46,387 bases of DNA from an uncultured virus (IMG/VR IMGVR_UViG_2061766007_000711) (Duplodnaviria; Heunggongvirae; Uroviricota; Caudoviricetes): IMG/VR virus record IMGVR_UViG_2061766007_000711. The stretch is one strand, 5' to 3'. Both the position numbers and the translations under genes were made by a program. Positions 8,974-43,924 of the stretch are shown piece after piece. The notes under the pieces are model-generated. The model saw only the letters and a list, made by a program, of their open reading frames with translations. It searched no databases and was not told the origin of the DNA. Numbering within the stretch: position 1 is the stretch's first letter; each line of letters begins with the position of its first letter.

Positions 8974-9198
8974 CTTGCTATATTTTAACTGAGGAACTAC
9001 CATGCCAAACAATTCCGGTATAATACTGAATCTGATTACGGGAAAAAACGGGGCCGGCAAGAGCACGGTCGCAAAGCGACTGAGGGAGCTGGGGTATTCC
9101 GTCCTGGATACGGATGTACTGTTCAAGGACATCATNNNNNNNNNNGCGCTCTCCATCGACGAGGCGTAGCTTTGCTATATTTGGACTGAGGAACTACC

Positions 9199-11636: not shown

Positions 11637-12058
11637 CGAAGTGCTCGCCTCGTGCGAGGAAACGGATGAACTGAAGAACATCATGGATGCCCTCGGGGTT
11701 GTCCTTCCGGAGGACGAGTACGGGCCCGACACTTCCCTGATGCAGCCGGAAATCAAGGTAATTGCCGGTATCCTCCTGGTGGACAACAAGAGCGGCGACC
11801 CGTCCCACGACGCAAAGAAGACGCTCAAGGACGCTCTGGCGAAGATATGCGACGGAAAGCCCGTGGAGGGAGTATCGGAGACCGCNNNNNNNNNNCGCCG
11901 GTATCCTCCTGGTGGACAACAAGAGCGGCGACCCGTCCCACGACGCCAAGAAGACGCTCAAGGACGCGCTGGCGAAGATATGCGACGGAAAGCCCGTGGA
12001 GGGAGTATCGGAGACCGCGATGGATGGCGAGGTGGAAAGTAACCTGGACCTGTTCTAG
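11614..12058 (+). CDS. hypothetical protein
   Basis: AGGAG RBS; gap-duplicated internal segment. Confidence 0.6.
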
Positions 12059-12808: not shown

Positions 12809-12908
12809 CTGAGTACCTTGGGGTCGGTTAACCGGTAGTTTATGCCGCCGGAGAAACTATTTTTTGCTATATTTGGTTTAACACAATCTTTCTAAGAGGA
12901 TATTCACT

Positions 12909-13139
12909 ATGAAAATCAACCTTATCAATACAGCAAAGGCCGCCGCAATCGTCACGGCCGTCGTAATCACGGTCAAGGCGGTCAAGACCGTAGTGGCCAA
13001 GGTCAAGGCCAAGAAGGTCACCACCGAGGATGTCGAGGAAGAGTCCATCACTTCCGCCAAGATTTTCTCCGGCAACGAACGCGAGAACTGCGACTGCGAA
13101 GCCTGCGACTGCGCCGCAGAGGAAGAATTCGGCCGCTAG
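12909..13139 (+). CDS. small protein with hydrophobic N-terminus and CDCEACDC Cys cluster
   Basis: GAGGA RBS, CTATATTTG promoter at 12867, hairpin GGGACCGC-TTCT-GCGGTCCC downstream (13171-13190). Confidence 0.65.
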   Translation: MKINLINTAKAAAIVTAVVITVKAVKTVVAKVKAKKVTTEDVEEESITSAKIFSGNERENCDCEACDCAAEEEFGR

Positions 13140-13221
13140 CGGGTACCACCTGCAGTGCAGGAAACTGGACGGGACCGCTTCTGCGGTCCCTTCATAATAA
13201 ACTATGCAATAAGAGGACAAT

Positions 13222-14031
13222 ATGGCTATAACCGTTATCTATTCCGACATGGGCGACGTAGACTGCGCCAGCATCCCCCTTCTCTGGAAGGACGTACCGG
13301 ACGTCCACGTAATGCGCCTGGCACGCGACACCGACTACACCAAGGACGACATCAGGGAAGCAATCCGTAACGAGGACGACACCCTCATCATGTGCGGCCA
13401 CGGGACTCCCCGGGGCCTCCTGGGCTACGTCTGCGAGGAGCGCGAGGAGCGCATCCCGACAGCCGGCTCCTGGGGCTACACTCCCGGCAGCAGGCAGCGT
13501 GGCAGCCTGACATCCCGTTACGGGAGCGGCAGGATGATGAGCATGTCCGAGATGTACGCTAGGCTCAAGCACGACGAGAAGCTGCCGGGTGCAATCGGAC
13601 CGATGGTCGACCGCAAGCCGGCCCCCAAGCCAGTGGACAAGCCGGCCGAGAAGCCGGAACAGAAGACCCGCATCGTGAAGTACCGCCACATGGACAACGC
13701 CGTCGACGCGTCCATGGTGAACGACATCCACGCCGAGAGGGTTATCGCCGTATGGTGCCACGCAACCTCGTTTGCCGAGGCGCACCACCTGTACGGGTTC
13801 TGGTCCTCGATGTTCATCTCCAACAGCGGAGAGGCCCGCATGTGCGGGTACAACGGGGTGACCCAGGAGACAATCGTCGCCGAGACCTACAAGTTCTGGC
13901 GCGACGCGAACACCCTCCTGAAGAACGACGTGCCGCTCGACGAGTGGATTGACCGCCTGATGGAGATGGGCAACCTGAACTACCCGACCACCAGGTTCAA
14001 CTACGAGGGGCTCCGGTACTACCCGCGCTAA
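13222..14031 (+). CDS. hypothetical protein, possible clan CD (caspase/gingipain-like) cysteine peptidase fold
   Basis: LIMCGHG and IAVWCHA strand-His-Gly / strand-Cys pattern; GAGGA RBS. Confidence 0.6.
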   Translation: MAITVIYSDMGDVDCASIPLLWKDVPDVHVMRLARDTDYTKDDIREAIRNEDDTLIMCGHGTPRGLLGYVCEEREERIPTAGSWGYTPGSRQRGSLTSRYGSGRMMSMSEMYARLKHDEKLPGAIGPMVDRKPAPKPVDKPAEKPEQKTRIVKYRHMDNAVDASMVNDIHAERVIAVWCHATSFAEAHHLYGFWSSMFISNSGEARMCGYNGVTQETIVAETYKFWRDANTLLKNDVPLDEWIDRLMEMGNLNYPTTRFNYEGLRYYPR

Positions 14032-14052
14032 AGTAAATTGAAAGTTTACAAC

Positions 14053-14082
14053 AAAATGCCTGACGAAAGTCAGGCATTTTTT
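14053..14082 (+). terminator. intrinsic terminator
   Basis: AAAATGCCTGAC-GAAA-GTCAGGCATTTT plus T tract. Confidence 0.8.
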
Positions 14083-14114
14083 GCTATATTTGGGTTACAA
14101 CCAAAGGGAAAACT

Positions 14115-14640
14115 ATGTACGAGAAGGATTCACATACCGGGCTGGACCTGTTCCTGCTCATAGTAATATTGGCCGGCGCTTTCGTGATTACGCGATGCGA
14201 GAACGCCCTAGCGGACGCCGACTTGCATAAGGTGTCGCCTACCGCCAAGTCCGACTACCTGGAGTACAACACGGAGACCTGGTTCGAGCAGAAGGTCAAG
14301 GGCGGCAACCGCATGAAGAAGGCCGTGTACGCCACGTATACCTCCATAGCGAAGGAGAACGGCATTACCGTCTACGATGCGGTGAAGGGAAGCAGGGCGA
14401 AGTTCGCGGGGCAGTTCAGGAACAGNNNNNNNNNNNNNNNNNNNNNNNNNNNNNNNNNNNNNNNNNNNNNNNNNNNNNNNNNNNNNNNNNNNNNNNNNNN
14501 NNNNNNNNNNNNNNNNNNNNNNNNNNNNNNNNNNNNNNNNNNNNNNNNNNNNNNNNNNNNNCAATCTCCCGGAACAGGAAGTGGAGCACGACGGGCAGGT
14601 CGACATCGACTACGAAGGATTCGACATGGTGGTAAATTAA
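14115..14640 (+). CDS. hypothetical protein with N-terminal membrane anchor
   Basis: LFLLIVILAGAFVI segment; middle lies in a gap, alternative-allele fragments at 12502-12768 and 14692-14886. Confidence 0.6.
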
Positions 14641-14903
14641 TTTTTACAATAAATCTATTGACAACGTCCGTAGATTAGGGTNNNNNNNNNNACGGAAAGC
14701 TTTGGTACTCCCGCGGTAATCGTGCATTTCACCTGGGAGGAGTGCAGCGGCTCCGGGGATGACCGGCACTGCCACACTGAGCACGACGAAGTTACCATCC
14801 CGGAAGTAAATCTCCCGGAACAGGAAGTGGAGCACGACGGACAGGTAGACATCGACTACGAAGGATTCGACATGGTAGTAAATTAATTTTTACAATAAAT
14901 CTA

Positions 14904-14934
14904 TTGACAACGTCCGTAGATTAGGGTATATTTG
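14904..14934 (+). promoter_or_regulatory. sigma70-type promoter TTGACA-N17-TATATT(TG)
   Basis: TTGACA 14904-14909, 17-bp spacer, TATATT 14927-14932, upstream of AAGGAG RBS and ATG 14972. Confidence 0.8.
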
Positions 14935-14971
14935 TAGTTGTAAAAGGAACGATACAACCAAGGAGTACACC

Positions 14972-15661
14972 ATGTCCTACAAGAATTTTCTCGGCCGCTT
15001 TGGCCACCGCTGGTTCACGGATTACGACCGCAAGATGGTACTTATCGACTTTTCCGCAGACGAATACGATGTCGAGGTGACGTTCACCGACGACAAGCCG
15101 GACACTCCGCTCAAGGACTGCATCGGCACGGAAACCAACGTGGACGCCATCATGATTTACTACAAGGACGGCACCGGACGCCGCGACCCCGAGCCGTTCC
15201 GCTGGCAGGTCACCGGCGTGTTCCACTGGAGCGACTTCTCCACTACTGTCGGGGACAGCAACCCGAGAACCTACTTCTGGAACAGGAGCAAGAACCGCCA
15301 GCTCTTCCCGCAGACGAGGAACGAGCCGGTCGCTGATATCGCCAAGTACCGCCGTGCAGTGCGCGAGAAGTTCGTCAACTTCCTGCACATGAACGGAATC
15401 GACGACAACAGGGAAGGCGTGCTCCGCGTGCCCGTCAACGTGTTCAACGACGACGCCAGGAAGAACCTGATGCGTTTCCTGGGCACGCTGGATATGGACG
15501 GGATACAGACCTTCGTCACGGTGCATTTCGAACGCAGCACAATCGACCAGCTTACCCGTCTCGACACCGAGATTGAACTCGGCGACCTCGGGGAAGTACT
15601 GGAAATTGCCGAAGAACGTAACCACGGAAACACCGATGACTCTGCAGACTACGGAAATTAA
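14972..15661 (+). CDS. hypothetical protein
   Basis: strong promoter and RBS, 229-aa ORF. Confidence 0.75.
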   Translation: MSYKNFLGRFGHRWFTDYDRKMVLIDFSADEYDVEVTFTDDKPDTPLKDCIGTETNVDAIMIYYKDGTGRRDPEPFRWQVTGVFHWSDFSTTVGDSNPRTYFWNRSKNRQLFPQTRNEPVADIAKYRRAVREKFVNFLHMNGIDDNREGVLRVPVNVFNDDARKNLMRFLGTLDMDGIQTFVTVHFERSTIDQLTRLDTEIELGDLGEVLEIAEERNHGNTDDSADYGN

Positions 15662-15672
15662 GGAGACATATC

Positions 15673-16215
15673 ATGGGAAGGCATTTCAAGAAACGAGAAT
15701 ACCGGTACTGGACCGAGCCCGAAATCGAGAAGCTACGCAACGGGCAGATTCCGGAAGGCCGCACCTACGTGCAGTGCTGCGCGAAGGCGGACTTGCTCGG
15801 GTTCCCTCGCCCGGATTCCCCTACGGGACGCCACAAGTGGACGAAGGAAGACCTGGAAACCATGAAGAGCGGGAAGGTGCCGCCGGGACGCACGGCGACT
15901 GCCTGCATCACCAAGGGATACGGACTCGGCTACCGCGTGGCGGACCTGGGGAACGGCAACCTGCAGGTGGAATCGATGCGCGACGAGACTCCGTCTGAGG
16001 TCGCGACGATGACTAAGGCCGCCCTGCTGTCCAAGATGAGGGACGAGGGGCTCACCTACCCACAGATAGCCGAGCTCGCCGGGATTTCCAAGCAGTACGC
16101 ATGCGACCTGGTGAACAGGTACCGCAGGAGCGCACGGTATGCGGCCAAGAAGGCCAAGTCCGGCAACCGGGTGGAAGACCTGGTACGGAAATTCAACGAG
16201 GCCAGGAAACGCTAG
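15673..16215 (+). CDS. DNA-binding protein with two Myb-like W-T-x-E repeats and C-terminal HTH
   Basis: YWTEPEIEKLR, KWTKEDLETMK, GLTYPQIAELAGISKQYACDLV. Confidence 0.7.
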   Translation: MGRHFKKREYRYWTEPEIEKLRNGQIPEGRTYVQCCAKADLLGFPRPDSPTGRHKWTKEDLETMKSGKVPPGRTATACITKGYGLGYRVADLGNGNLQVESMRDETPSEVATMTKAALLSKMRDEGLTYPQIAELAGISKQYACDLVNRYRRSARYAAKKAKSGNRVEDLVRKFNEARKR

Positions 16216-16221
16216 TATTGC

Positions 16222-16252
16222 AAAAAGAAGGCACCCTTACGGGTGCCTTCTT
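16222..16252. terminator. bidirectional terminator between convergent genes
   Basis: AAGAAGGCACCC-TTAC-GGGTGCCTTCTT. Confidence 0.8.
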
Positions 16253-16272
16253 CGCAATTGTGCATACAATCG

Positions 16273-17617
16273 TCAGCGGGACATCTGCATCTTGCAGCCG
16301 TTCGGGAGTATTACGTACAACGGAATGAGGATGCCCTGTTTCACGGCCGCCTCGATTGTGCCGCTGTCTGCCTGGCCGTCCTGCACGAGCGGGTTCTCCG
16401 TGTCGGTCACGCCGTACATGTATACCTGCTTGCCGCTTTCTGCCGCGAATTCCGTGGCATCCAGCTCCGCGTCGCTCCCCTTCTCGTTTACCTGGAGAAG
16501 CCCGGCGGTATCGTGTTCGACGACCATGAGGTAGTCGTTGTCGTCCTCTTCCGTGTCTTCAGGCATTTCGCCTTCCGGCTCGGCTGGCTCCGGTTCGGCC
16601 GGTTCCGGGTTCCCGGATTCCTCGCCTTCCTCGTCGGGAAGAATGTCGTTCGCACGCAGGACTTCCTGCAGGTNNNNNNNNNNACTCGGCTGGCTCCTGT
16701 TCGGCCGGTTCTGGGTTCCCGGATTCCTTGCCTTCCTCGTCGGGAAGAATGTCGTTCGCACGCAGGACTTCCTGCAGGTCCATGGCGCCCCGTATCATGT
16801 CATCCGTATAGTCCTGGAAGATGCCACTATGGATATAGTCGTTGATTACCGAGATTGGCACGGTAACCTTGCGGCCGGTCTTCTCGTCCTTGTGCCCGTA
16901 TGACTTGATGAAGTTGCCGTCCTTGCACCGGATGACCTTGAAGTTGCCGCCTTCGCCGTGCAGCTTGATGATGTAATCGTGGAGGTACTGAACCGGGACG
17001 GAAATCACTGCGCACGTGCCGTCGGCGCCGGGAACCAGTATGAAGTACTGCGGCTGTACCTTGGTGTTTGCCTGGCCCTTGTTCATGACGCTCGGCACGT
17101 CGCACACGGCGGTCACGTTCAGGTCCATGGTCTCGTTGATTTCCTCGGCCATGTCGTTAAACATGTTGCCGTGCCCGAGAACGGCATCCAGGTTGGCGTA
17201 GTTGTTCAGGTACCGCATTCCTTGCCCGGCAGCCCATACGGCCTGCGCGAGGTGAATCATCTCGTGGGCCATGACGTTGGCGAGCTCGAACGGGCTGAGG
17301 TCGAACGAGTTGCTGAACTCGATTTTCGGGTCCTCGTAGGTGAAATTCGTTATCTGCCCCTGTTCGTCCCTGGCGGTCTCGGTCTTGCAGAGGAAGCGCC
17401 CGAGCCAATGCTCGGATTCGCCGAAGGTGAAGTCCACCATTTCCGGGTAGCCCTTGAATTGGGACTTGAAGAATTCATTGTACAGCTGTGTGTACAGCTT
17501 CTGCAGGGTGGGCAGTCCGTATGCCTCCGGGGTCTTCAGTGTTTCGGTAGATTCCTTAGCTGCCGGGTTCCGGGAAGCCTGCATCTCTTCAGGTGTCATC
17601 AGTCTAATGTTTGCCAT
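16273..17617 (-). CDS. SprT-like zinc metalloprotease domain protein
   Basis: LYTQLYNEFF, VMAHEMIHL (HExxH), GHGNMF; frame broken only at the 16674-16683 gap. Confidence 0.75.
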
Positions 17618-17695
17618 GGTAAACCCCGTATTTTCCCGTAGTTTATCTACGGGAAGTCCATGATTTTTGCTTGGTGATATAAACTACCTGCAATC

Positions 17696-18799
17696 ATGAT
17701 TAAAACTTTGGAGTCTCCGATGAACCAAAAATTCGTAACTTATCTCAAGCTGCTCGAGAGCAGGGCACCGGCTTCCAAGAAGGCCGACTTCCACCGCGCA
17801 ATCGAGCTTTATACGGCAGGTGCCGCAAAGATGGAGAGCAACGGCAACCCGTTCGAACGCAATACCGGTAGCCTCGGCCGTACCCAGGAGCCATTCTCCG
17901 CATCGAACCGCAAGCCGGGAGAAGGCATCGCCAACGCCAAGCGTTCTCCTGAAGTGGTGAAGGCCGACGCCGACCGCGCCGCCGCAATCCGCAAGGCCGA
18001 GGAAGGTTTCCCGGCAGCCGCTGACACCGTCATCAAGGCGGCCGAGACGCAACCGGGCAAGATTGACGCCTGGGTCGACTACCGTCTCGAACCTGCAATC
18101 AAGCGCGCCCGCAAGGCCGACGGTCTCGGCGGTTCCGAAGGCTCCAAGGCCAAGTACAAGTCCGACTACAATACCGCCAAGAAAAAGTACAAGGAAGAGG
18201 ACAAGGAAGCCCGCGAGAAGGCCAGAAAGGACGAGGAAGAGTCCCTTGCACGTTCCCGCGAGGAAATCGAATACAAGAAGCAGCAGGAAGACCGCAAGGC
18301 CGACGAGAAGCGCATGTCCGATTCCGAAAAGAAGCGCGAGGACCTCGGTTCCAACCGCGACTACAAGTTCAGCGCCGAGCAGAAGCTCAATTCCACCGAC
18401 AAGGACATCAACCGCCACGTAGCAACCGCACGCAGCGAGGACATGGCCAAGGGCGAGGAAGCCGACAAGAAGATGAACGCCGCCGACAAGTTCTGGGAAG
18501 AGAACGGCGAGAAGGCCGAGTTCGGCACTCCGATGAGCGACGAGGAAATCGCCGCCGACCAGGCAGAGAAGAGGGCCGAACAGAAGCACAAGAACGACGA
18601 GGCCGATAACGCCATGGCCGCCGCCGAGAAGTGGTGGTCAGACAACGGCGACAACTACGGCCTGGCCGACGTCGCCGCAGTGAACATCAAGGGTCTCCGT
18701 GCCGCGTTCGAGAGCGTGTACGGCGATTCCAGCGAGTTCACCGACGCCGAAATCCGTACCATCTGCGAATCCTGCTACCGCAGGTCTCGCCGGAAGTAA
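17696..18799 (+). CDS. highly charged hypothetical protein (possible virion internal protein)
   Basis: 367-aa Ala/Lys/Glu-rich ORF preceded by ATAAACTA motif. Confidence 0.7.
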   Translation: MIKTLESPMNQKFVTYLKLLESRAPASKKADFHRAIELYTAGAAKMESNGNPFERNTGSLGRTQEPFSASNRKPGEGIANAKRSPEVVKADADRAAAIRKAEEGFPAAADTVIKAAETQPGKIDAWVDYRLEPAIKRARKADGLGGSEGSKAKYKSDYNTAKKKYKEEDKEAREKARKDEEESLARSREEIEYKKQQEDRKADEKRMSDSEKKREDLGSNRDYKFSAEQKLNSTDKDINRHVATARSEDMAKGEEADKKMNAADKFWEENGEKAEFGTPMSDEEIAADQAEKRAEQKHKNDEADNAMAAAEKWWSDNGDNYGLADVAAVNIKGLRAAFESVYGDSSEFTDAEIRTICESCYRRSRRK

Positions 18800-18818
18800 T
18801 CGGTAAGTCGATATATTG

Positions 18819-18844
18819 AAAGGCCGGGCTATGCCCGGCCTTTT
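18819..18844 (+). terminator. intrinsic terminator
   Basis: AAAGGCCGGGC-TAT-GCCCGGCCTTTT. Confidence 0.8.
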
Positions 18845-19002
18845 ATGTTCCTATACGAATATAAACTATGGATAATGATGGGGAACCACGATGGCAGGAC
18901 AACTATACNNNNNNNNNNAGCAATATACTGAAAGGCCGGGCTATGCCCGGCCTTTTATGTTCCCGTACGGATATAAACTATGGATAATGATGGGGAACCA
19001 CG

Positions 19003-22229: not shown

Positions 22230-22352
22230 CTATTTGCGCTCGGCGTGGTCGTCGCCGAGATATAGGATTAGGGAAAGCATCCCGACCGTGAAGCCGGATG
22301 CGAACGCGAGCGCTATGACGAGCACCATGAGCGCGATGGATTCGCCTTCCAT
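22230..22352 (-). CDS. small membrane protein (40 aa)
   Basis: GGAGG RBS; IALMVLVIALAFASGFTVGMLSLILYL. Confidence 0.55.
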   Translation of the reverse strand: MEGESIALMVLVIALAFASGFTVGMLSLILYLGDDHAERK

Positions 22353-22386: not shown

Positions 22387-23172
22387 TTACAGGGCCTGGT
22401 CGATGCACCAGTCACGGTCCGAGTCGAGGGCCGCGTGGAGCTTTTCCAGTGCCTTCTTGCGGCGGCGTGCGAGGATTTCCTTGCTGCTGCCGATGTGGCG
22501 TGCAAGGGAGCTCACGCTCCAGGGCTTGCTGCCGGGATTGCCGTCGGCTTCCGGTTCGCATTCGAGGAAGCACTTGGAGACGACGTAGGCCTCCTCGCGG
22601 TCGAGCACCGCCAGGAGTCTCCCGGTGATGTCGCGGTATTCCCCCTGGAGGGATTCCTCGTAGATGTCGGCAGCGTCGTCCCCGCCCTTCATCACGTCGA
22701 AGAGGCAGGTCTTCTCGTCGCCGTCCTGGATGGGGGCGTAGCCGGACTCGATGGAGGCGAGTTCCGCACGCTTCCCGTCCTTCTCGAAGTTTTCCGGGAG
22801 GCGCACGAGGTTGTCGCCGTACATCTCCTTGTTCATGGCGCTCATGGCGTGGAAGCACAGGAACGTCCAGAAGCGCTTTCCGCGTGCGGGCTCGAAGAGC
22901 TCGATTGCGCGGTCCATGATGGCGAGGACGCTGGACACGAGCTCGGCGCTGTTGCCCTTGAAGATGTTGTACTTGGTCTTGCTGGCCATGTCGATGAGGG
23001 CGGGAAGCTGTTTCTCGAAGAGGAGGTTACGCGCCTTCACGTTCCCGCGCTTGGCTAGGGCGATGTAGGCGAGTTCGACTTCGGGGGTGCTGATTATCGC
23101 CCTTGCTCTGTTGTAGGCTGCACGTACTTCGTTCTTGAACACATCTGTGGTCAATTCCATTTTGGTCTCCAT
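22387..23172 (-). CDS. divergent sigma70-family RNA polymerase sigma factor
   Basis: region 1.2/2.1 ELAYIALAKRGNVKARNLLFEKQL, region 2.2-2.4 RAIELFEPARGKRFWTF...VRLP, region 4 LAVLDREEAYVV...SVSSLARHIGSSKEILARRRKKALEKLH. Confidence 0.8.
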   Translation of the reverse strand: METKMELTTDVFKNEVRAAYNRARAIISTPEVELAYIALAKRGNVKARNLLFEKQLPALIDMASKTKYNIFKGNSAELVSSVLAIMDRAIELFEPARGKRFWTFLCFHAMSAMNKEMYGDNLVRLPENFEKDGKRAELASIESGYAPIQDGDEKTCLFDVMKGGDDAADIYEESLQGEYRDITGRLLAVLDREEAYVVSKCFLECEPEADGNPGSKPWSVSSLARHIGSSKEILARRRKKALEKLHAALDSDRDWCIDQAL

Positions 23173-23229
23173 TGTGTAGTGTCGATGGTGGTTGTATCGT
23201 TTGTTGTAAATGCCGATTACCGGCTCGTT

Positions 23230-23302
23230 AAATATAACTTATTTTTTCGGTACGGAAAGGTGTTTGAAATGTTTTTTACGCAAAAAGTTTTTTACATAAA
23301 AA
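23230..23302 (-). promoter_or_regulatory. host-type TATATTT promoter of the sigma gene with two upstream palindromic boxes
   Basis: AAATATA at 23230-23236; tandem GTTTTTTACGCAAAAA / GTTTTTTACATAAAAA at 23271-23302. Confidence 0.5.
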
Positions 23303-23317
23303 ATGTATGACACTGTC

Positions 23318-23917
23318 CTACAGGACGAACATCTCGGGCTTCTCCGCACGCATGGACACGACCCCGCGGTTGCTAATCACGATGCTGTCGAGGAGGCGGA
23401 TTCCGACGATGCGGCCGGACTCGATGAGCTGTTCGGTGAACTCGTAGTCGCCGTCGCTGAACCTGGCGCTCCCGCTCGGGTGGTTGTGCGCGATTATTAC
23501 GCTGCGTGCGCCGTCGGCAATCGCGAGCTGGTATACCGCGCCCGGGTCTACCGATGCGCGGGATGCGGAACCGGCCGCACACTCGTGGCGCTTGATGAGG
23601 GTGTTGTCCGACGCCACGGTGAGCACCACGACGTGTTCCGTGCGGGCGTTCTTCAGGTCGCTGAGGTAAGCGGCCACGAGGCCGGGGTTGCCGACCTTGA
23701 TGGGCATGGTGTCGAGCAGGAACATGAAGGACATGCGCGCCGACGCCACAATCTTTTCAGCCATGCCGTTGCTCACGCGCAGGGCCGACACGACCTCCTC
23801 CGCCGTCGGGAGCTCGCGGCAGCGGGCGAGATACGCCACTGCGCACTCGGCGAGGCTCCTGGGGCAGTTGCGGCCCCCGAGGAGGATTCGCATTGTTTCT
23901 ACTGCTTCGTTGTTCAT
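23318..23917 (-). CDS. radC: RadC-like JAB-domain protein
   Basis: EHVVVL, AHNHPSG-x3-FSDGD, GIRLLDSIVI. Confidence 0.85.
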   Translation of the reverse strand: MNNEAVETMRILLGGRNCPRSLAECAVAYLARCRELPTAEEVVSALRVSNGMAEKIVASARMSFMFLLDTMPIKVGNPGLVAAYLSDLKNARTEHVVVLTVASDNTLIKRHECAAGSASRASVDPGAVYQLAIADGARSVIIAHNHPSGSARFSDGDYEFTEQLIESGRIVGIRLLDSIVISNRGVVSMRAEKPEMFVL

Positions 23918-23958: not shown

Positions 23959-25107
23959 CTACGCCTTGACGAATTCCCTGACCTGTTCCGGGGTGACCAT
24001 GCACCCGTGGAGTCTCAGCGGTACGTCCCCGTCCGGGCCGACGTAGAGCATGTCACCGCGCCCGCAGAGCGACTCCGCGCCCGGTCGGTCGATGATTACC
24101 TGCGAGTCGGTGCGCGAGGACACCTTGAGGGCGATTCGTGTGGACAGGTTTGCCTTCAGGGCTCCCCTGATTACGTCCACGGAAGGCCTCTGCGTGGCGA
24201 GCACGAGGTGGATGCCGGTGCTCCTTGCCTTGGCGGCGAGGATTGACAGCGGCTTCTCCGCGTCCGGGTAGTTCATGAGGAGGTCGTAGAACTCGTCCAC
24301 GACAACCACGCGGTACGGGATGTGGCCGTGCTCGGAATAGCCGAGCTTGTACTGGCGGAGGTTGGATACGCCGTAGTGGCGGAACACGCCCATGCGGTAG
24401 TTCATATCTGCGACGAGGTCATTGAGCAGCGGAACCGCGTCCTCGGACTTGCCGACCCTGGGCTCGTATGCCCCGCTGGGGCCGAGGACGACGCACGGGT
24501 GGCCGTCGAAGTCGTTGAACTCGGTTCCCTTGGGGTCGACTATCGACACCACGCACTCGTTCTCGTCGTAGTTGTCGAGGAGCCCGCAGATGAGGCTGTT
24601 GAGGAAGACGGTCTTGCCGCTACCGGACTGTCCGGCGACAAGCATGTGCGGGGCCGTGGCCACGTCGATGCTGTACGGGTTGCCCGAGGTGTCCACCCCG
24701 AGGCACACGCGCAGGCCGTTGGCCGCGGCGTTGCCGGGAACCACCGGGATTACCGACGTGGCCGGCACGGCGATTCGCTTGGCGTTCGGTATCTCGATTG
24801 CGAGCGACACCGAGCCCTTCCAGTTGGTCTCCCCGATGAACACCTTGCTGGCGCCCACCCCGAGACGGATGCCGAGGTCGCGGCGGAGGTTCTCCACCTT
24901 GTTCACGTGGTCGGTGTCCTTGAGCAGGGACACGATGTACTTGGTCACCACCGGGCCGTGCTCCACCCCGTCTACGCGGAGGGAGACCCCGTTCAGGCGG
25001 AAGAAGTCCTCGATGCGGGTGCCGAGGGCACCGCCCTCGAACGCGGGCATACCGACGTTGTCGAGCCCGGCGAAGAATCTTTTCGGCTGTGGAATGTAGT
25101 TGTACAT
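23959..25107 (-). CDS. FtsK/SpoIIIE motor-domain ATPase (alpha+beta domains only)
   Basis: GPVVTKY, IEIPN, PHMLVAGQSGSGKT, IVDPK, VVVDEF, ARSTGIHLVLATQRPS, GAESLCGRGDML; no TM segment or gamma domain. Confidence 0.9.
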   Translation of the reverse strand: MYNYIPQPKRFFAGLDNVGMPAFEGGALGTRIEDFFRLNGVSLRVDGVEHGPVVTKYIVSLLKDTDHVNKVENLRRDLGIRLGVGASKVFIGETNWKGSVSLAIEIPNAKRIAVPATSVIPVVPGNAAANGLRVCLGVDTSGNPYSIDVATAPHMLVAGQSGSGKTVFLNSLICGLLDNYDENECVVSIVDPKGTEFNDFDGHPCVVLGPSGAYEPRVGKSEDAVPLLNDLVADMNYRMGVFRHYGVSNLRQYKLGYSEHGHIPYRVVVVDEFYDLLMNYPDAEKPLSILAAKARSTGIHLVLATQRPSVDVIRGALKANLSTRIALKVSSRTDSQVIIDRPGAESLCGRGDMLYVGPDGDVPLRLHGCMVTPEQVREFVKA

Positions 25108-25167
25108 GGTGCTGTCTCCGTTAGTCAAAAGTCAAAAGTTAAAAATCGAAAAATTAAAAATCAAAAA

Positions 25168-26161: not shown

Positions 26162-27507
26162 GGTCGAATCTCCTTTCCTGTGAGGTGTATCTCTTTGTTT
26201 CTGTCCCGGTCTTGCGACCGTCTGGGCCCTCCCCGTCGTCCCCCGGGGAGCACGGTGGTGGCAATGACAAATTCAAAGCGGAAACCGCGTGTGGTTTTCT
26301 TTCCCGGAACGTGTCTGCATATAGCGCTCACCTGTGGATGCTTCACCCCGATATGCCGGGCGGCATCGGCGATGGAGTCGTGTATCATCACCAGGTTTCC
26401 TTCTAGGTCGTATTGTGCCACCTTCTTTGCTATGTTTTCCCCGGGAGGGAACCACTCGTCGATATATCCTGCCTTCCGGCAAATTTCATAGGCCGCCTTG
26501 GAACCGTGCATGAAGGCGTTTCTGGAGTCGTATTTCATTGCCTCCTCGTGGAGTTCATCCTTGCTCATGTTGCTCCATGTTCCTGCCGGAGCTCTTTGTT
26601 TCTTTAGCCAGGTGCACTCCGAGTACCAATCTTTATTGTGCAACAGGGCATTGTATACGCTCATGTCGTTCTTCACGAGCTCTGACACTGTACTGTACTT
26701 CTTTGCCACTTCCAGGCAGTATTCCTTGGTGCGCTTTCCGGCAGCCAGGCCCCCGAGGCTTCCGCCGGGAGCGCTGTTCAGGAGTACCCATCCTTCCGAC
26801 GAATATTTCTCCATGGTCAGGCATTCCAGCTCGGCACCCTCCATGGGGGTGATTCCGTCCCTGATTACTACCGGGTAGGGTACCGGGACTCCCGAGGCCA
26901 TGGCGAACTCGTACACGGGGTCCCCGGGTTTCCTGTGGCTTGTGTCCCTTCTCCTTGGTTCTACCGTGCGTCCGACATATACCCGGTTTTGTTCCGGGAA
27001 CTCGTAAGCGTATACCATGTCCTTGAAACCACGGCTTATTATTTCCTCTTTCCTGGAAAGCCAAGTGAACCCTGGGAGAAGGCCGCGTCGCCATGCCATG
27101 TGCCACATGTGAGGGTCCTTTGTGCGGAAATCCTTGCCAGTGGAGTACTTCATGGCAGCGGCGGTCACCTCCTCGTCGGACACCTTCCTGGTGAGTTCCC
27201 CGCGTGAAAGGAACCACGTGTAGTCCTTCATCCACCCGTTTTTACGGGATAGCTTCCAGGCGGTGTGATAACGCCTCTTGAACTCGGACCTTCCCTTGCA
27301 CTCGCTGGCCAGTTCGAAACACTTCTCCCTGGTGAAGAAACCGGGGGGAGTCGTCTTTCTGTCGAACACGCGGTCCAGGATGCCGTATTTCTTGGCAGAC
27401 TGATAGCATGAGCTGTCGGCCTTGGCGAACTCCGCTATGCTATCATACTTTCGAGCCTCCTTCATACAGAAGGACTTCGTGAGTCTACGTCCACATGTGT
27501 ATCCCAT
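26158..27507 (-). CDS. GIY-YIG homing endonuclease with tandem helical repeats and NUMOD1-like C-terminal domain
   Basis: MVYAYEF...VYVGRT...RRRDTSH, ELE, LLN; repeated A-x-KY-x-S/T units; KKVAQYDLEGNLVMIHDSIADAARHIG...GFRFEF. Confidence 0.75.
   Translation of the reverse strand: MGYTCGRRLTKSFCMKEARKYDSIAEFAKADSSCYQSAKKYGILDRVFDRKTTPPGFFTREKCFELASECKGRSEFKRRYHTAWKLSRKNGWMKDYTWFLSRGELTRKVSDEEVTAAAMKYSTGKDFRTKDPHMWHMAWRRGLLPGFTWLSRKEEIISRGFKDMVYAYEFPEQNRVYVGRTVEPRRRDTSHRKPGDPVYEFAMASGVPVPYPVVIRDGITPMEGAELECLTMEKYSSEGWVLLNSAPGGSLGGLAAGKRTKEYCLEVAKKYSTVSELVKNDMSVYNALLHNKDWYSECTWLKKQRAPAGTWSNMSKDELHEEAMKYDSRNAFMHGSKAAYEICRKAGYIDEWFPPGENIAKKVAQYDLEGNLVMIHDSIADAARHIGVKHPQVSAICRHVPGKKTTRGFRFEFVIATTVLPGGRRGGPRRSQDRDRNKEIHLTGKEIRP
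26212..26257 (-). promoter_or_regulatory. GC-rich element copy 1 (putative phage promoter)
   Basis: TTGCGAC-N16-GTCGTCCCCCGGG-N3-CACGGTG on + strand. Confidence 0.7.
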
Positions 27508-27790: not shown

Positions 27791-27836
27791 TTGCGACCGT
27801 CTGGGCCCTCCCCGTCGTCCCCCGGGGAGCACGGTG
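27791..27836 (-). promoter_or_regulatory. GC-rich element copy 2
   Basis: same consensus; 27782-27842 identical to 26203-26263. Confidence 0.7.
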
Positions 27837-31526: not shown

Positions 31527-31572
31527 TTGCGACCGCCGGGGTCATCCCTGTCGTCCCCCGGGGAGCACGGTG
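31527..31572 (-). promoter_or_regulatory. GC-rich element copy 3, abutting the CRISPR trailer
   Basis: same consensus and spacing. Confidence 0.7.
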
Positions 31573-31581
31573 GAGGGACGG

Positions 31582-32525
31582 ACCAAATTCCCGCCTGCGC
31601 GGGAAACATTGCTGCCATCAAGTGCAAACACGCCATTATTGTTTCAATTCCCGCTCGCGCGGGAAACATAACGGCAAGGTCAATCACACATGGGGCTCTT
31701 CGTTTCAATTCCCGCCTTCGCGGGAAACATATAATGACTCCTTCAACGATTACGCGACCGTAGTTTCAATTCCCGCCTGCGCGGGAAACATTCGAGGGCC
31801 TGACTGTCCGCCATCTCCCGCCGCAATTTCAATTCCCGCCTGTGCGGGAAACATCGGGAAATCGTACAAGATTTACCTCCCCACAACTTTTCAATTCCCG
31901 CCCGCGCGGGAAACATTGGAGAAGATTGAGCTTCCCATCAAGTACATATTTCAATTCCCGCCCGCGCGGGAAACATCGTTTATGATTCCAGACCTCATTA
32001 CATCTCCTTTTCAATTCCCGCCCGCGCGGGAAACATCAGCAGCTGATGACAGCTGTGCTCGGCATCCCGTTTCAATTCCCGCCCGTGCGGGAAACATCTT
32101 AACGCGCAAGGCGTAGCCGAAATTACGATGTTTCAATTCCCGCCCGCGCGGGAAACATAGCTGGACACGTTCCAGGTCGGCTTCGACTATTTTCAATTCC
32201 CGCCCGCGCGGGAAACATCCTGGGCTGCTGTCAGCGGGCCATAGCCGATATTTCAATTCCCACCCGCGCGGGAAACATAGATTTGGCAGCGCGACACTAC
32301 CGTGGACGAGTNNNNNNNNNNNNNNNNNNNNNNNNNNNNNNNAACATTTGTTCTGCGACGCCATGTTGCCGTAGTAGTCATTTCAATTCCCGCCCGAGCG
32401 GGAAACATCACGTCGGGGTCCTCCCGGTAGTCCGGGGTGCACTTTCAATTCCCGCCCGCGCGGGAAACCTTATAAGCGACGCCACGAGGACATGTTCAAA
32501 TGATTTCAATTCCCGCCCGCGCGGG
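31582..32525 (-). CRISPR. CRISPR array, at least 16 repeats of 28 bp (+ strand TTTCAATTCCCGCCCGCGCGGGAAACAT), 15 visible unique spacers of 32-35 bp; no cas genes in window
   Basis: regular 60-63 bp period, 7-bp stem/4-nt loop, minus strand ends ATTGAAA; degenerate repeat at left end; one internal gap and leader side lost in gap. Confidence 0.95.
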
Positions 32526-34434: not shown

Positions 34435-34719
34435 CTCCAGCACCGCACCCTCGATGTTCTCGCGGAGCGCCCTGGTAATGGGGTTGCACACGCTCCTCAT
34501 CTCGTCCCCCCTGAAGAACGGGTCGATGGGGTAACCCACGAACAGGCCGTTCTCGCCCTCCATGATTCGCAGCCCGCGAACCACGAACTGGTCGTTGAGC
34601 ACGACCGTGGCGATACCCTTCATGTGCCCGAGGTGCGCGCCTTCCTCGAAAGGGAACACCTGCACCTGCGTCACCGCGAGGATGTCGAAATATTCGCTCT
34701 TTTCCTTTTCGTTCACCAT
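34435..34719 (-). CDS. spoVG: SpoVG-family nucleic-acid-binding protein (3' end in gap)
   Basis: VTQVQV, KGIATVVLNDQFVVRGLRIMEGENGLFVGYP, NPITRALRENIEGAVLE. Confidence 0.85.
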
Positions 34720-34764: not shown

Positions 34765-34810
34765 TTGCGACCGCCGGGGTATCCCCGGTCGTCCCCCGGG
34801 AGACACGGTG
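34765..34810 (-). promoter_or_regulatory. GC-rich element copy 4 (upstream of spoVG)
   Basis: same consensus and spacing. Confidence 0.7.
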
Positions 34811-34826: not shown

Positions 34827-35930
34827 CTACTTTCCCGTGGAAACGGCCTCGGCGACGATGCCGCTTGCGTCCAGCTTGGTCACGAGGGCTCCCCATGCCT
34901 TGCGCTCGGCCGCCGCCTTGCGCTCTTCCGGGGTGGCCCCGGTGGCTTCGACCGTGGTCGTGTACGTCACCGTCACCGTGAAGGTTTCCTTGGTCTTGGG
35001 CATCACCTTCGCCTTCTTCGGGGAGGCCGTCTTCGCGAGCTGCTTCTCGCCGATGGCCGTCCCCTTCATCTTGGCGCCGGACAGGTCGGCCCCGTCAAGG
35101 ATGGCCTTGCCGAACCTCGCGTCCTCCAGGTCGGCCCCGGAGAGGTTCGCCCCGGACAGGTCGGCCCGGGCGAAGTCCGCATCCTTGAGCCATGCGCCGG
35201 ACAGGTCGGCCCCGGTCATGTCCGCCCCGTTGAACTTCGTCTCGCCCAGGCCCGTGCGGAGGTTCGCCCCGCGCAGGCTGGCGCTTGAAAAGTTCACGCG
35301 CTCGGTATGGCGCAGGCCGGAAAGGTCCGCCCCGTCGAGCATGGCGCCGGAAAAGTCGCCCTCGGCGATATACGCGCCGCCGAAGGCCGCGCCGTCGAAG
35401 GTGGCCTTGGCGAATACAGCCTCGCGGATATACGCGTCCTTGAAGCTCGTCCGGACGCACTTCGCGCCGCCGAAGTCGGCCCCGGTGAAGTTCACCCCGG
35501 CCAGTTTCGCGTCGGTCAGGTCGGCCCCGGACAGGTTCGCCTCGTATCCCCGGGCCCTCCTGAGATTCGCCCCGGACAGGTTCGCGGAGGAGAAGTCGGC
35601 CTTCTCCACGTTGGCGCTGCGTAGGTTGGCCCCGGAGAGGTCGGCCCCGGCCATGTCGGCGTACCAGAGGTCCGCCCCGGAGAGGTCGGCCCCGGCCATG
35701 TTCGCCCCGGCAAGGTCAACCAGCCTGAGACGGGCCTTGCGGAGGTCCGCCCCGGAAAGGTCAAGCCCGGAAAGGTCGTTCCCTTCGAGGTCGGCCATCA
35801 TGCCCTCCCAGCCATCGCAGTCCTTGGCGAGCCAGTGCCTGTGGTTCTCGAGGATGACGGCGAGTTCCCCGGCGGATACCCTTACGGCCTTGTCCCCCTT
35901 CAGTACGTTTCTCCATTTCTTGTCAAACAT
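34827..35930 (-). CDS. pentapeptide-repeat protein
   Basis: ILENHRHWL head then long A(D/N)LSG repeats; AGGAG RBS before ATG 35930. Confidence 0.9.
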   Translation of the reverse strand: MFDKKWRNVLKGDKAVRVSAGELAVILENHRHWLAKDCDGWEGMMADLEGNDLSGLDLSGADLRKARLRLVDLAGANMAGADLSGADLWYADMAGADLSGANLRSANVEKADFSSANLSGANLRRARGYEANLSGADLTDAKLAGVNFTGADFGGAKCVRTSFKDAYIREAVFAKATFDGAAFGGAYIAEGDFSGAMLDGADLSGLRHTERVNFSSASLRGANLRTGLGETKFNGADMTGADLSGAWLKDADFARADLSGANLSGADLEDARFGKAILDGADLSGAKMKGTAIGEKQLAKTASPKKAKVMPKTKETFTVTVTYTTTVEATGATPEERKAAAERKAWGALVTKLDASGIVAEAVSTGK

Positions 35931-35983: not shown

Positions 35984-36029
35984 TTGCGACCGCCGGGCAC
36001 TCCACGGTCGTCCCCCGGGAGGCACGGTG
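35984..36029 (-). promoter_or_regulatory. GC-rich element copy 5
   Basis: same consensus and spacing. Confidence 0.7.
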
Positions 36030-37200: not shown

Positions 37201-37246
37201 TTGCGACCGCCGGGCACTCCCCTGTCGTCCCCCGGGAGGCACGGTG
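37201..37246 (-). promoter_or_regulatory. GC-rich element copy 6
   Basis: same consensus and spacing. Confidence 0.7.
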
Positions 37247-37800
37247 AGGGGAACCCCTCCCCACGGAATCCCCCGGAAGCCCCACGGAAGCCCCCTCGGT
37301 GGTTCCACCGGGAACACACGGGGGATACCCGGCGCCCGCGCCTGCCCCCCTCCCCGCTCCCCACATTCNNNNNNNNNNNNNNNNNNNNNNNNNNNNNNNN
37401 NNNNNNNNNNNNNNNNNNNNNNNNNNNNNNNNNNNNNNNNNNNNNNNNNNNNNNNNNNNNNNNNNNNNNNNNCCTCCCGGGAAACCCCAAGTACCCCCCA
37501 TGGAACACCCCGGAAACCCCCCTGCTCCCGGAGCCCTCCGAGGACTATCCAAGGACACCCCGGGGCCTTCCGAGGACTCTCCCGGGATACTCCGAGGACG
37601 CTCCTGGGATACCCCGGGGATTTCCCGGGAGGTTCCTGTCGTCCCCCGGGGGGCACGGTGGTGGGTACATGGTTCCGCCGGGCATCAGGGGAGCGGCCGG
37701 TGGAATTCACTCGGAATATCCATTGGAATCTCCATGGAATCCCCCGGGGAATCCCCACGGAATCCCCCGGGAGTGTCCTGTGGAATGTCCCGGGGTATAC
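37247..37800. repeat. non-coding GC-rich tract of CCCGG/GGAANCCCC units including a partial element (37638-37660) lacking the TTGCGAC box
   Basis: low-complexity sequence, only Pro/Gly-rich spurious ORFs. Confidence 0.55.
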
Positions 37801-38494: not shown

Positions 38495-38540
38495 TTGCGA
38501 CCGCCGGGGTTATCCCTGTCGTCCCCCGGGAGGCACGGTG
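38495..38540 (-). promoter_or_regulatory. GC-rich element copy 8
   Basis: same consensus and spacing. Confidence 0.7.
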
Positions 38541-38758: not shown

Positions 38759-39725
38759 TAGCCTTCCTCCTTGTCGAGAAGGGTGAGGTTGACGGATTCC
38801 TTCCCGGGAATTTTCCCGGTACGGAGCCTGAGTCCCCCGGGGGTTGCCTCGAGGCTAGCCCCGTGCTTGGCGAGGATGGAGCCCATGCTGGCCATCAGGT
38901 ACTTGAGCTGGTTGACGTCCTGTTCCGGTATGGGCTTGGGTGCGGTTACCTCCGTGAAATTCTTGATGAGGAACGGGAGGGCATCGCGGTGGCTCCGGTA
39001 GATGTTCTTGGAGGGAGTGCCGTCCTTGCCCGGTATGGTGATGCCGCACATGTACTTGGTGTCGCCTTCCGGGAAGAAGGACTCGAAGACCTTGATTTCC
39101 GGGGCGTCGCTATTGGGCGTGACCTGTCGGGCGGTCAGTTCGTTGTCAATCCTGANNNNNNNNNNCGGGGAGTGCCGTCCTTGCCCGGTATGGTGATGCC
39201 GCACATGTACTTGGTGTCGCCTTCCGGGAAGAAGGACTCGAAGACCTTGATTTCCGGGGTGTCGCGCTTGGGATTGACCTGGCGGGCGGTGAGCTCGTTG
39301 TCAATCCTGAGGAACTTCACCGTGGTGACCGGGGCGGATGTGGTGATTCCCGGGACGGACTCCACGAGCTTGACTAGGGAAGTCTGGAGGTTGCGGATGT
39401 CGTCGTAGGCCTTGCGGAAGTCGGCCATGCAGTCCGTGGGTTTCGCAGTCTTCTGCTTGGCATTGTAGAACTCCGCGAAGCACTTGGCGGCGTCCTCGAC
39501 GAAGTCGGGATTGCCTACAGAGTCGAAGGACTTCCACTTGTTGTTCCTGGTGTCCCGTACGTGCAGTTCGTACTTGCCGTTCGCCGGGTCGTAGACGTTC
39601 TTGGTCAGGGAAACGCCGTCGGCCAGGATGAAGCCCTCGGGGTCGACCTGGCTCGGGATGTCGGGGAACGTCCTCCTGATGACGTAGTTGATTTCCTGGT
39701 ATGTATTGATATGCGGATTTGCCAT
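38758..39725 (-). CDS. hypothetical protein (MANPHINT...)
   Basis: AAGGAG RBS; internal gap duplication. Confidence 0.6.
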
Positions 39726-40276: not shown

Positions 40277-40322
40277 TTGCGACCGCCGGGGAGTTCCCGG
40301 TCGTCCCCCGGGAGGCACGGTG
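40277..40322 (-). promoter_or_regulatory. GC-rich element copy 9
   Basis: same consensus and spacing. Confidence 0.7.
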
Positions 40323-40903: not shown

Positions 40904-40926
40904 GTCGTCCCCCGGGGGGCACGGTG
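40904..40926 (-). promoter_or_regulatory. GC-rich element copy 10 (truncated by gap)
   Basis: GTCGTCCCCCGGG-GGG-CACGGTG. Confidence 0.55.
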
Positions 40927-41635: not shown

Positions 41636-41681
41636 TTGCGACTGCCGGGGGATTCCCTGTCGTCCCCCGGGGGGCACGGTG
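41636..41681 (-). promoter_or_regulatory. GC-rich element copy 11
   Basis: same consensus and spacing. Confidence 0.7.
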
Positions 41682-42585: not shown

Positions 42586-42631
42586 TTGCGACGGGAGGGG
42601 CCGGTGCGGTCGTCCCCCGGGGAGCACGGTG
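42586..42631 (-). promoter_or_regulatory. GC-rich element copy 12 (allelic duplicate at 42708-42753)
   Basis: same boxes and spacing with unrelated N16 spacer sequence. Confidence 0.7.
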
Positions 42632-42946
42632 GTGGACACCGGGGTTTCCTGGAGCATCAGGGGCTGCCGCGGCNNNNNNNNNNTGTCTCCTTTTTGGTAC
42701 CTCCCAGTTGCGACGGGAGGGGCCGGTGCGGTCGTCCCCCGGGAGGCACGGTGGTGGACACCGGGGTTTCCTGGAGCATCAGGGGCTGCCGCGGCNNNNN
42801 NNNNNTGCACCGCGCCAGGCTGCGTAGAGCTGTCCGTAGGTGAAGTGCTGCTCGCCCACGGTTTCACCTGGGTCGTACCCCTTGGGGAAGCCGGGAACCC
42901 TGTAGGGCTTGAAGCCGAGTCGCTNNNNNNNNNNCCTATGGAAAGG

Positions 42947-43878: not shown

Positions 43879-43924
43879 TTGCGACTCCCTGCACCGGTAC
43901 GGTCCTCCCCGGGGGAGCACGGTG
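43879..43924 (-). promoter_or_regulatory. GC-rich element copy 14 (variant middle box GTCCTCCCCGGGG)
   Basis: outer boxes and spacing conserved. Confidence 0.65.

Follow-up and report, generated by a model that had tools for sequence, protein, structure and literature searches.

The sigma gene and its upstream region

We analyzed a stretch of 46,387 nucleotides (the window, numbered from its first letter) from an uncultured virus of the Caudoviricetes, IMG/VR record IMGVR_UViG_2061766007_000711; sequencing runs labelled bovine gut metagenome contain this stretch, and none of these runs is recorded as RNA. On its minus strand the window carries a gene for a sigma70-family factor and, upstream of it, 14 copies of a GC-rich bipartite element (the GC element). 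An earlier note on this DNA had proposed that the sigma factor is expressed from a host-type promoter and in turn reads the GC element. Elimination of other readers, synteny, element anatomy and a loose co-variation across four genomes make the sigma the best candidate reader of the element, a conclusion that we consider somewhat probable. The features around the sigma gene are as follows.

22387..23172, minus strand: sigma70-family open reading frame (ORF), 261 amino acids (aa)
23173..23317, minus strand: AT-rich intergenic region of 145 nt between the RadC-like gene and the sigma gene, with a candidate host-type promoter inside
23230..23236, minus strand: TATATTT in the context TTATATTTA, matching the Bacteroidota -7 consensus TAnnTTTG at 7 of its 8 positions
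23318..23917, minus strand: RadC-like JAB gene, directly upstream of the sigma gene; same neighbour in relatives
23959..25128, minus strand: FtsK/SpoIIIE-like ATPase gene, within the run of genes from the last GC element to the sigma gene

The strings that the earlier note had quoted as a sigma70 scaffold (AKRGNVKARNLL, RAIELFEPARGKRF, VRLP, FWTFLCFHAMSAM and SKEILARRRKKALEKL) were all found in the 261-aa translation, and the kinship with sigma70 described below goes beyond chance. The ORF has a codon-position GC content of 0.59/0.39/0.85, the coding signature of the window's real genes. Its real start is probably the second ATG, at 23160, giving a protein of 257 aa, because 20 of 22 homolog clusters begin at MEL or MEK, i.e., at the second Met of the 261-aa ORF, and because GGAGAC, the usual ribosome-binding wording of this phage, stands immediately 5' of that codon. 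Directly downstream of the sigma gene, a 40-aa hydrophobic ORF (MEGESIALMVLVIALAF...; 22230-22349, minus strand) has its own GGAGGA ribosome site and could be co-transcribed.

The gene was also said to sit behind a TATATTT motif and to have no GC element of its own, and both points held: the motif runs from 23236 to 23230, and no GC element was found in 22387-23302, the closest copy lying at 26212-26257. The distance from TATATTT to the start codon is 57 nt for the ATG at 23172 and 69 nt for the one at 23160. This variant, which lacks the final G of the consensus, was found upstream of the sigma ortholog in all four genomes compared (the window and three related contigs, G001 to G003), and it fits a weaker host-type promoter. 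A generic scan for E. coli-type promoters near the sigma gene returned 1 site against 1.2 expected and carries no information.

Family, domain layout and predicted fold of the sigma factor

A PHROG search assigned the protein to phrog_351, 'RNA polymerase sigma factor' (E=7.7e-8, residues 29-249), with a weak match to phrog_29861. Among NCBIfam models, SigK (6.9e-7), RpoS (1.3e-5) and TIGR02937 (2.9e-5) were matched, all far below their curated cut-offs, and Pfam Sigma70_r2 reached E=0.008 and 16.4 bits on the query, under its cut-off of 24. The phrog_351, SigK and TIGR02937 alignments extend to residues 248-251. The homologs form 22 clusters with 46-98% identity and lengths of 256-262 aa, some of them on contigs of 327-472 kb. 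When the profile of this homolog family was compared with the PDB, 48 of the 48 listed sequences were sigma factors, the best being RpoS (3.3e-8). An exhaustive profile search collected 12 representatives at E<=1e-30, 68 at <=1e-10 and 3818 at <=1e-3. These comparisons describe the sigma as a member of a small, distinct family inside the sigma70 superfamily.

In the alignment with RpoS, residues 25-129 of the profile correspond to RpoS 81-184, that is, to regions 1.2-2.4 (domain i-Evalue 3.6e-5, whole-sequence 3.3e-8). In region 2.2, RAIELFEPARGKRF pairs with RpoS RAVEKFDPERGFRF, and VRLP pairs with IRLP. Residues 146-246 align to RpoS regions 3.2-4.2, the region 4 stretch being weak when taken alone (i-Evalue 24). 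Only ~16 residues separate the two aligned stretches, versus the ~52-residue sigma3 domain of RpoS, and Sigma70_r3 had no Pfam match in the query or in 22 more distant relatives. Of these relatives, 17 passed the Pfam cut-off for region 2 and/or 4 (10/22 for r2, 13/22 for Sigma70_r4 or r4_2), 3 matched below the cut-off and 2 gave nothing.

The AlphaFold2 model, with a mean predicted local distance difference test score of 71.6, contains confident helical domains at residues ~10-118 and 167-255 and a low-confidence segment at 119-165. Foldseek against the PDB gave 63 matches at E<=0.001, and all 50 of those shown were sigma chains, with 256-341 aligned columns. The template modelling scores of 0.25-0.33 are low, as expected because the domain arrangements of free and holoenzyme-bound sigma factors differ. 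The comparison with sigma70 regions 2 and 4 that the earlier note had suggested, by profile and by AlphaFold/Foldseek, thus brought up only sigma factors among the listed matches. The layout, in 261-aa numbering, is the following.

Residues ~30-120: sigma2
Residues 119-165: linker
Residues ~167-255: sigma4, with an 8-residue insertion relative to RpoS

Region 2 homology, a region 4 helix-turn-helix and a sigma fold are all found, and by sequence the protein reads as a two-domain sigma70-family factor that comprises region 1.2 to 2.4 and region 4, with sigma3 mostly missing. The insertion in sigma4 (EPEADGNPGSKPW, residues ~204-220) is specific to the family; E206, G211 and W218 are invariant in 23 sequences, and the segment is modelled as a small beta hairpin. 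More speculatively, the insertion might reach further along the DNA, toward the long upstream box of the GC element described below.

The profile alignment shows that the residues at the sigma70 -10 and -35 recognition positions differ from the RpoS/RpoD wording; FSTYATWWIRQ and TRERIRQ, the wording of groups 1 and 2, are visible in the RpoS sequence of the same alignment. Group 3 and group 4 sigmas routinely differ from this wording in regions 2.4 and 4.2. The description of these residues as rewritten was therefore right about the difference and overstated its meaning, such divergence being ordinary for alternative and phage sigmas. Within the family, the FWTF...MNKE core of region 2.3-2.4 is invariant.

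Two classes were ruled out for the protein. It is not a primary (group 1/2) sigma, given the lack of a Sigma70_r3 match, the ~16 residues in place of sigma3 and the different 2.4/4.2 wording, and it is not a late sigma of the T4 gp55 type, as it matches phrog_351 (and weakly phrog_29861) and not phrog_234. As for extracytoplasmic function (ECF) models, TIGR02937 scored 23.7 bits against a cut-off of 42.9 and Sigma70_ECF (PF07638) gave no match; the two-domain layout agrees with ECF sigmas.

Anatomy of the GC element

On the minus strand, the GC element reads cCACCACCGTGCyyCCCGGGGGACGAC-N16-GTCGCAA with a variable spacer sequence. Its 23-mer core occurs in 14 copies at <=4 mismatches, all of them on the minus strand and between 26.2 and 43.9 kb of the window. 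One further match, with 5 mismatches on the plus strand beside a true copy, was taken as spurious. The copies are listed below; each is on the minus strand, and unless stated otherwise each consists of the upstream box, N16 and GTCGCAA.

26212..26257, minus strand: GC element copy; start codon 26161
27791..27836, minus strand: GC element copy, 61 nt identical to the 26.2-kb copy
31527..31572, minus strand: GC element copy adjoining the last repeat of a CRISPR-like array; start codon 31494
34765..34810, minus strand: GC element copy before a SpoVG-like gene, start 34719
35984..36029, minus strand: GC element copy before a pentapeptide-repeat gene, start 35930; begins 2 nt past the stop of the upstream ORF
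37201..37246, minus strand: GC element copy; start codon 37151
37638..37660, minus strand: variant copy, upstream box without GTCGCAA, followed by CCCGGG-rich repeats
38495..38540, minus strand: GC element copy; start codon 38426
40277..40322, minus strand: GC element copy; start codon 40230
40904..40926, minus strand: upstream box of a GC element copy, downstream part lost in an N run
41636..41681, minus strand: GC element copy; start codon 41607
42586..42631, minus strand: GC element copy; start codon 42558
42708..42753, minus strand: GC element copy in a 122-nt duplication (D19) flanking an N run, probably a scaffolding duplicate of the 42586 copy
43879..43924, minus strand: diverged GC element copy that keeps GTCGCAA but has 4 mismatches in the 23-mer; an N run cuts its downstream part

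The window is a gappy scaffold with 43 N runs (1952 N), several of which have duplicated flanks. Near-identical segments flank many of these runs (e.g., 9136-9145, 11886-11895, 39156-39165 and 42674-42683; repeat families D9, D11, D14 and D16-D20). They look like scaffolding duplications rather than biology; they inflate repeat lists and break several ORFs.

The bipartite pattern was matched 12 times in the window, always on the minus strand, whereas 0.00 matches were expected from 100 shuffles; the two copies outside this set are the one cut by an N run and the variant without a second box. All 14 copies lie on the gene strand. In 10 of them, GTCGCAA is followed after 27-68 nt by a start codon that is preceded by a ribosome-binding site; in two others, N runs or duplication hide the corresponding sequence.

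When metagenomes were scanned for the core, 31 stretches (29 loci) turned up, from close relatives with 80-99% nucleotide identity. Pooling the window with the 29 metagenome loci gave 52 distinct copies, many of which are orthologous and hence not independent. The spacer was 16 nt in 44 of the 52 and 17 nt in 2, and 6 copies had no downstream box. Both the upstream box, over ~27 nt, and GTCGCAA had a high information content, and the spacer had a low one.

The first impression by eye had been of a covarying stem around GGUCGCAA, which was not upheld in the 52-copy set. On 43 distinct copies, RNAalifold returned -3.59 kcal/mol with a covariation term of +0.50, a penalty; its 7 pairs vary solely between C-G and U-G, with no double-sided changes. 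Many copies had no complementarity in the segments flanking GTCGCAA, and Rfam at gathering thresholds gave 0 matches in the window. Two conserved boxes, a variable spacer of fixed 16-nt length and the lack of covariation make the element, as judged from its sequence, resemble a sigma-type bipartite promoter in its anatomy, rather than a structured RNA. The fixed 16-17 nt spacing and the co-oriented placement upstream of genes at promoter distance are both those of bipartite promoters.

The exact window element was found in 0 stretches of IMG/VR. A search of species genomes gave 4 single-copy matches in unrelated high-GC records, which were taken as chance. The sigma gene was not found in 33 metagenome or genome loci, but these loci end before its position and are uninformative on co-occurrence.

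Synteny and divergence in related phages

A single-sequence search of IMG/VR with the sigma gave no match, and an alignment-based search gave three loci; the sigma had no match in species genomes and none among GenBank phages. The three loci are sigma orthologs on phage contigs: G001 (58% identity, 222 kb), G002 (46%, 117 kb) and G003 (52%, 260 kb). All three contigs are fragments, 41-91% complete by CheckV (G001, 78%). The window's own element, at <=3 mismatches, was found in 0 of the 3 relatives. Each of the relatives carries an abundant GC-rich repeat of its own, in which the box-N16-box layout is the same and the boxes are different. The elements of the four genomes were aligned on a common GGGGA core, and they are given here with the recognition residues of the corresponding sigmas.

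Window: repeat core CACCGTGCCTCCCGGGGGACGAC, 14 copies; upstream box GGGGGACGAC; downstream box GTCGCAA; sigma region 2.4 FLCFHAMS, region 4.2 SKEILARRRKK
G001: repeat core GGGATGGGATGCCCGGGAG, 39 copies; upstream box ATGGGATGCC; downstream box tttCCCA; sigma region 2.4 FLRNHAFN, region 4.2 SKECINRIRKA
G002: repeat core CCCCGGGGGATGCTCCCGG, 16 copies; upstream box GGGGGATGCT; downstream box AGGnATA(C); sigma region 2.4 FLRNHVFS, region 4.2 SKDYIRSKHKQ
G003: repeat core CCCCATGGGGAGCCACGGG, 29 copies; upstream box TGGGGAGCCA; downstream box GGnnATAC; sigma region 2.4 FLQGRARS, region 4.2 SKDILARIHRN

Within each of the four genomes, the copies are clustered in a single block of 17-37 kb with a median spacing of 0.6-1.2 kb, nearly all of them on the same strand (window, 14/14; G001, 38/39; G002, 16/16; G003, 29/29). 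The block lies directly upstream of a same-strand series of genes that ends with FtsK-like, RadC-like and sigma, again in all four. The residues of sigma regions 2.4 and 4.2 also differ among the four genomes. Co-occurrence of the sigma and the element, which the earlier note had put forward as a check, was thus observed as synteny between the sigma gene and a homologous element block in 4/4 genomes, and not as presence of the exact window element, found in 0/3 relatives.

G003 (loci L044-L051) also contains at least 8 ORFs that match the transposase family phrog_506, one of them within its GC-element block (L051:5248-6609). Such a load of insertion sequences is unusual for a phage.

Two further probable promoter classes

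Two AT-rich motifs recur in the same genomes. The first, TTGCTATATTTG, occurs more often than any other 12-mer in each of the three relatives (exact copies: 19, 25 and 38), and the window has 7 sites at <=1 mismatch (4092, 6943, 8975, 9172, 12864, 14081 on the plus strand, and 41601). The sites lie 20-60 nt upstream of start codons, and the motif is identical in all four genomes. It includes TATATTTG, in agreement with TAnnTTTG, the -7 consensus of the Bacteroidetes primary sigma in the available text of PMC7366714. We regard TTGCTATATTTG as probably an early class of promoters read by the host sigma, which hints at Bacteroidota as the host phylum.

The second motif, ATAAACTA, is enriched in every genome, as listed below.

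Window: 6 found, about 0.5 expected, located at 12836-18980
G001: 13 found, 4.2 expected
G002: 15 found, 1.6 expected
G003: 23 found, 7.5 expected

In G003, these sites lie 25-40 nt before the starts of large structural genes, and the motif resembles the T4 late promoter. A gp55-like 'late sigma transcription factor' (phrog_234) is encoded by a separate gene in G003 and G002; it was not found in the 78%-complete G001. ATAAACTA would thus probably be a late promoter class, read by the gp55-like factor. The three motif classes are kept apart: in all four genomes, the GC blocks contain 0 copies of ATAAACTA, and their counts of AT motifs are 0, 0, 0 and 4.

Candidate readers of the GC element

The searches for other polymerases and sigma factors covered the three fragments G001 to G003. 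Domains of multisubunit RNA polymerase (RNAP) were found in 0/3 relatives, with controls detected in 14/14, and no RNAP PHROG was matched by the 54 G003 ORFs of at least 430 aa, 31 of which had no PHROG match of any kind. Single-subunit RNAP (PF00940) was likewise found in 0/3, but its control gave no match, so this result is uninformative. The phage RNAP elsewhere in the genome that would speak for another reader was therefore not detected in the three fragmentary relatives, with the single-subunit control having failed. The sigma ortholog was the only full-length sigma70-type gene found per relative, with weak partial helix-turn-helix-like matches elsewhere. G003 is T4-like in its gp23-type head protein, portal, sheath, baseplate wedge, family B polymerase, clamp loader and UvsX-like recombinase. 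Because TTGCTATATTTG and ATAAACTA have plausible readers and no phage RNAP was found, pairing the sigma with the GC element is the best explanation of these data.

Several points weigh against this pairing. Closer homologs of the sigma lie on contigs of up to 472 kb outside the searched set, and a phage RNAP or a second sigma elsewhere in the genome is possible. The conserved upstream box, at ~27 bp, is far longer than a sigma4 footprint, and another factor may be involved there. The genes behind the elements look like small ORFs of the early type, and these could also be served by a polymerase delivered with the virion. Finally, the correspondence between sigma and boxes across the four genomes is loose and not one-to-one: the region 2.4 helices of G001 and G002 are similar (RNHAFN and RNHVFS) and their downstream boxes are read as different, whereas G002 and G003 have an ATAC-type box in common, yet their region 2.4 helices differ.

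One alternative, which we regard as unlikely, is that the GC element is a promoter with another reader and that the sigma serves another promoter set. Candidates for that reader are a phage RNAP, either a single-subunit enzyme that starts at the GGGGG run or a divergent multisubunit one; a host sigma of the ECF type; and the host holoenzyme together with a phage activator bound to the upstream box. A contiguous upstream box of ~27 bp, as in T7-type promoters, would suit a single-subunit enzyme, but a second box at a fixed 16 nt beyond a free spacer (44/52 copies) is typical of sigma-type promoters and not of those used by single-subunit polymerases. The searched records are incomplete, the PF00940 control gave no match and 31/54 large G003 ORFs have no PHROG match, which leaves room for an overlooked enzyme; still, no RNAP domain was found in the three relatives. 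The imperfect co-variation of sigma and box also favours another reader, while the very fact that the boxes differ between related phages points to a phage-encoded, co-evolving reader and not to a host sigma. Every other repeated motif class, moreover, already has a plausible reader.

We consider it improbable that the GC element acts as RNA, i.e., as a signal in the 5' untranslated region or between cistrons of a polycistronic transcript (for processing, stability or antitermination, likened to RNase III sites or nut/boxB-like hairpins), and that the sigma is unrelated to it. The element is present in every intergenic gap of the co-directional block and only in the sense orientation, a short stem around GGUCGCAA can be drawn by eye in some copies, and the minus strand lacks terminator-like sites in 21.6-26.4 kb, all of which would suit such a signal. 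However, what is conserved is a set of sequence blocks at fixed spacing, and the RNAalifold result on 43 copies, the flanks of GTCGCAA and the Rfam search, reported above, all speak against a structured RNA.

That the sigma reads the TTGCTATATTTG or ATAAACTA class, as successor to or substitute for the host sigma, with the GC element unrelated, is very improbable: both AT-rich motifs are strongly over-represented upstream of genes and the invariant FWTF...MNKE core is what an invariant target would lead one to expect, but TATATTTG agrees with the host consensus in the available text of PMC7366714, a gp55-like late factor is present for the T4-late-like ATAAACTA, the GC class would be left without any reader, and, since the sigma gene stands behind an AT-type motif in 4/4 genomes, the sigma would require itself for its own synthesis.

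Proposed transcription cascade

Pairing the sigma with the GC element leads to the following scheme, in which the sigma homology and fold, the element anatomy, the synteny and the separation of the three motif classes are observed and we infer core-polymerase binding, the assignment of the sigma to the motifs, the start site, the timing and the feedback. The phage would be huge, T4-like and uncultivated, and its host would use promoters of the Bacteroidota type. Host RNAP with the host primary sigma would transcribe the sigma gene from TATATTTA, a weak variant of the TTGCTATATTTG class. The phage sigma would then join the host core polymerase and direct it to the GC-rich bipartite promoters, sigma4 reading the ...CCCGGGGGACGAC box and sigma2 reading GTCGCAA 16 nt downstream. 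Transcription is predicted to start ~6-9 nt after GTCGCAA, in a semi-conserved AGATA. The putative GC promoters precede nearly every gene of the 17-37 kb co-directional block, whose genes are small and mostly of unknown function. On the minus strand, no terminator-like site was found in 21.6-26.4 kb, a segment that spans the last element (26.2 kb) to the sigma gene; read-through from the last GC promoter into the sigma gene is therefore possible and could add positive feedback. The late structural genes would use the separate ATAAACTA class, read by the gp55-like factor.

The cascade from host sigma through phage sigma to a GC-element regulon, as first claimed, gains from the host-type motif, the promoter anatomy and the synteny in 4/4 genomes, while the evidence that this sigma binds the element is circumstantial.

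A broader joint reading can be offered tentatively, with somewhat less than even confidence. A clade of huge, T4-like, rumen-type phages would carry at least four diverged and possibly mutually orthogonal sigma/promoter pairs that act on the Bacteroidota core RNAP. Each sigma would drive a private, hyperplastic block of 17-37 kb with 14-39 small genes through GC-rich cassettes of ~60 bp, the ~27-bp upstream box being read partly by the sigma4 insertion or by a second phage factor, and the terminal sigma gene would close a positive feedback loop.

Relation to known systems

Phage sigma/promoter pairs are already known as a kind, as the available portions of PMC8948821 and PMC7824862 indicate; the interesting part here is the GC-rich cassette of ~60 bp and its four diverged natural versions. 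According to the accessible text of PMC8948821, the sigma of phage 7-11 reads a bipartite GTAAtg-(16)-aCTA, and promoter specificity drifts between related phages. Our system resembles 7-11 gp47 and phiEco32 gp36, as described there, in combining a phage sigma70-like protein, the host core RNAP and phage-specific promoters, and the 7-11 spacer is also 16 nt. It differs from what that text reports in that the boxes are GC-rich, the upstream box is ~27 bp long and GenBank phages give no sequence match; the promoters serve small non-structural genes and not late genes; and the phage is a huge T4-like one that also has a gp55-like late factor.

So far as PMC7824862 could be consulted, 'group 2' jumbo phages have no phage RNAP and encode a minimal gp55-type sigma together with a fuller sigma70-type factor; huge phages encoding their own sigma70 are on record in PMC7162821. 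The phages studied here share with group 2 a T4-like replication and structural module, the lack of a detected RNAP and the combination of a minimal and a fuller sigma. Those two papers, in the portions at hand, list sigma genes and define no cognate promoters for them; the present data allow a candidate promoter class to be delimited together with its regulon.

The PeSL cassettes of T4-like phages are, in the available text of PMC4122927, composite terminator/early-promoter motifs between small variable ORFs, and the GC elements are alike in being short conserved regulatory cassettes repeated between small variable ORFs of hyperplastic regions. Identity with PeSL cassettes was ruled out: the GC elements lack a conserved stem-loop, and their boxes do not resemble the host-type TAnnTTTG.

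Group 4 (ECF) sigmas have the same sigma2 plus sigma4 layout without a sigma3 domain. The GC element likewise resembles ECF promoters, which are stringent and bipartite, have a spacer of 16-17 nt and contain GTC in the downstream box. Unlike ECF sigmas, however, the protein studied here has SigK, RpoS and sigma32 as its best full-length matches and a region 1.2-like N-terminal helix.

If the pairing is true, it would define a middle-class transcription switch for uncultivated, very large phages of gut and rumen Bacteroidota. The temporal programme of the clade could then be annotated from sequence by means of three motif classes and three readers, and several natural sigma/promoter variants would become candidate orthogonal expression parts in Bacteroidota, where few exist. 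The understanding of how phage sigmas work would be unchanged.

Other features of the element block

The SpoVG-family gene (34435-34719, minus strand; Pfam E=8.1e-18) lies directly behind the element at 34765-34810 and is cut by an N run. The pentapeptide-repeat protein (34827-35930, minus strand; Pfam 1.9e-57) has coding repeats that dominate the direct-repeat families D1 and D2. The CRISPR-like array at 31586-32525 comprises ~15 repeats of ~29-32 nt with a consensus near TTTCAATTCCCGCCCGCGCGGGAAACAT and a period of 60-63 nt. The vicinity of the array yielded no recognisable cas gene, although N runs and duplicated segments crowd the sequence at 32.5-34.8 kb. Huge phages with CRISPR arrays that target host sigma70 genes are recorded in the available text of PMC7162821.

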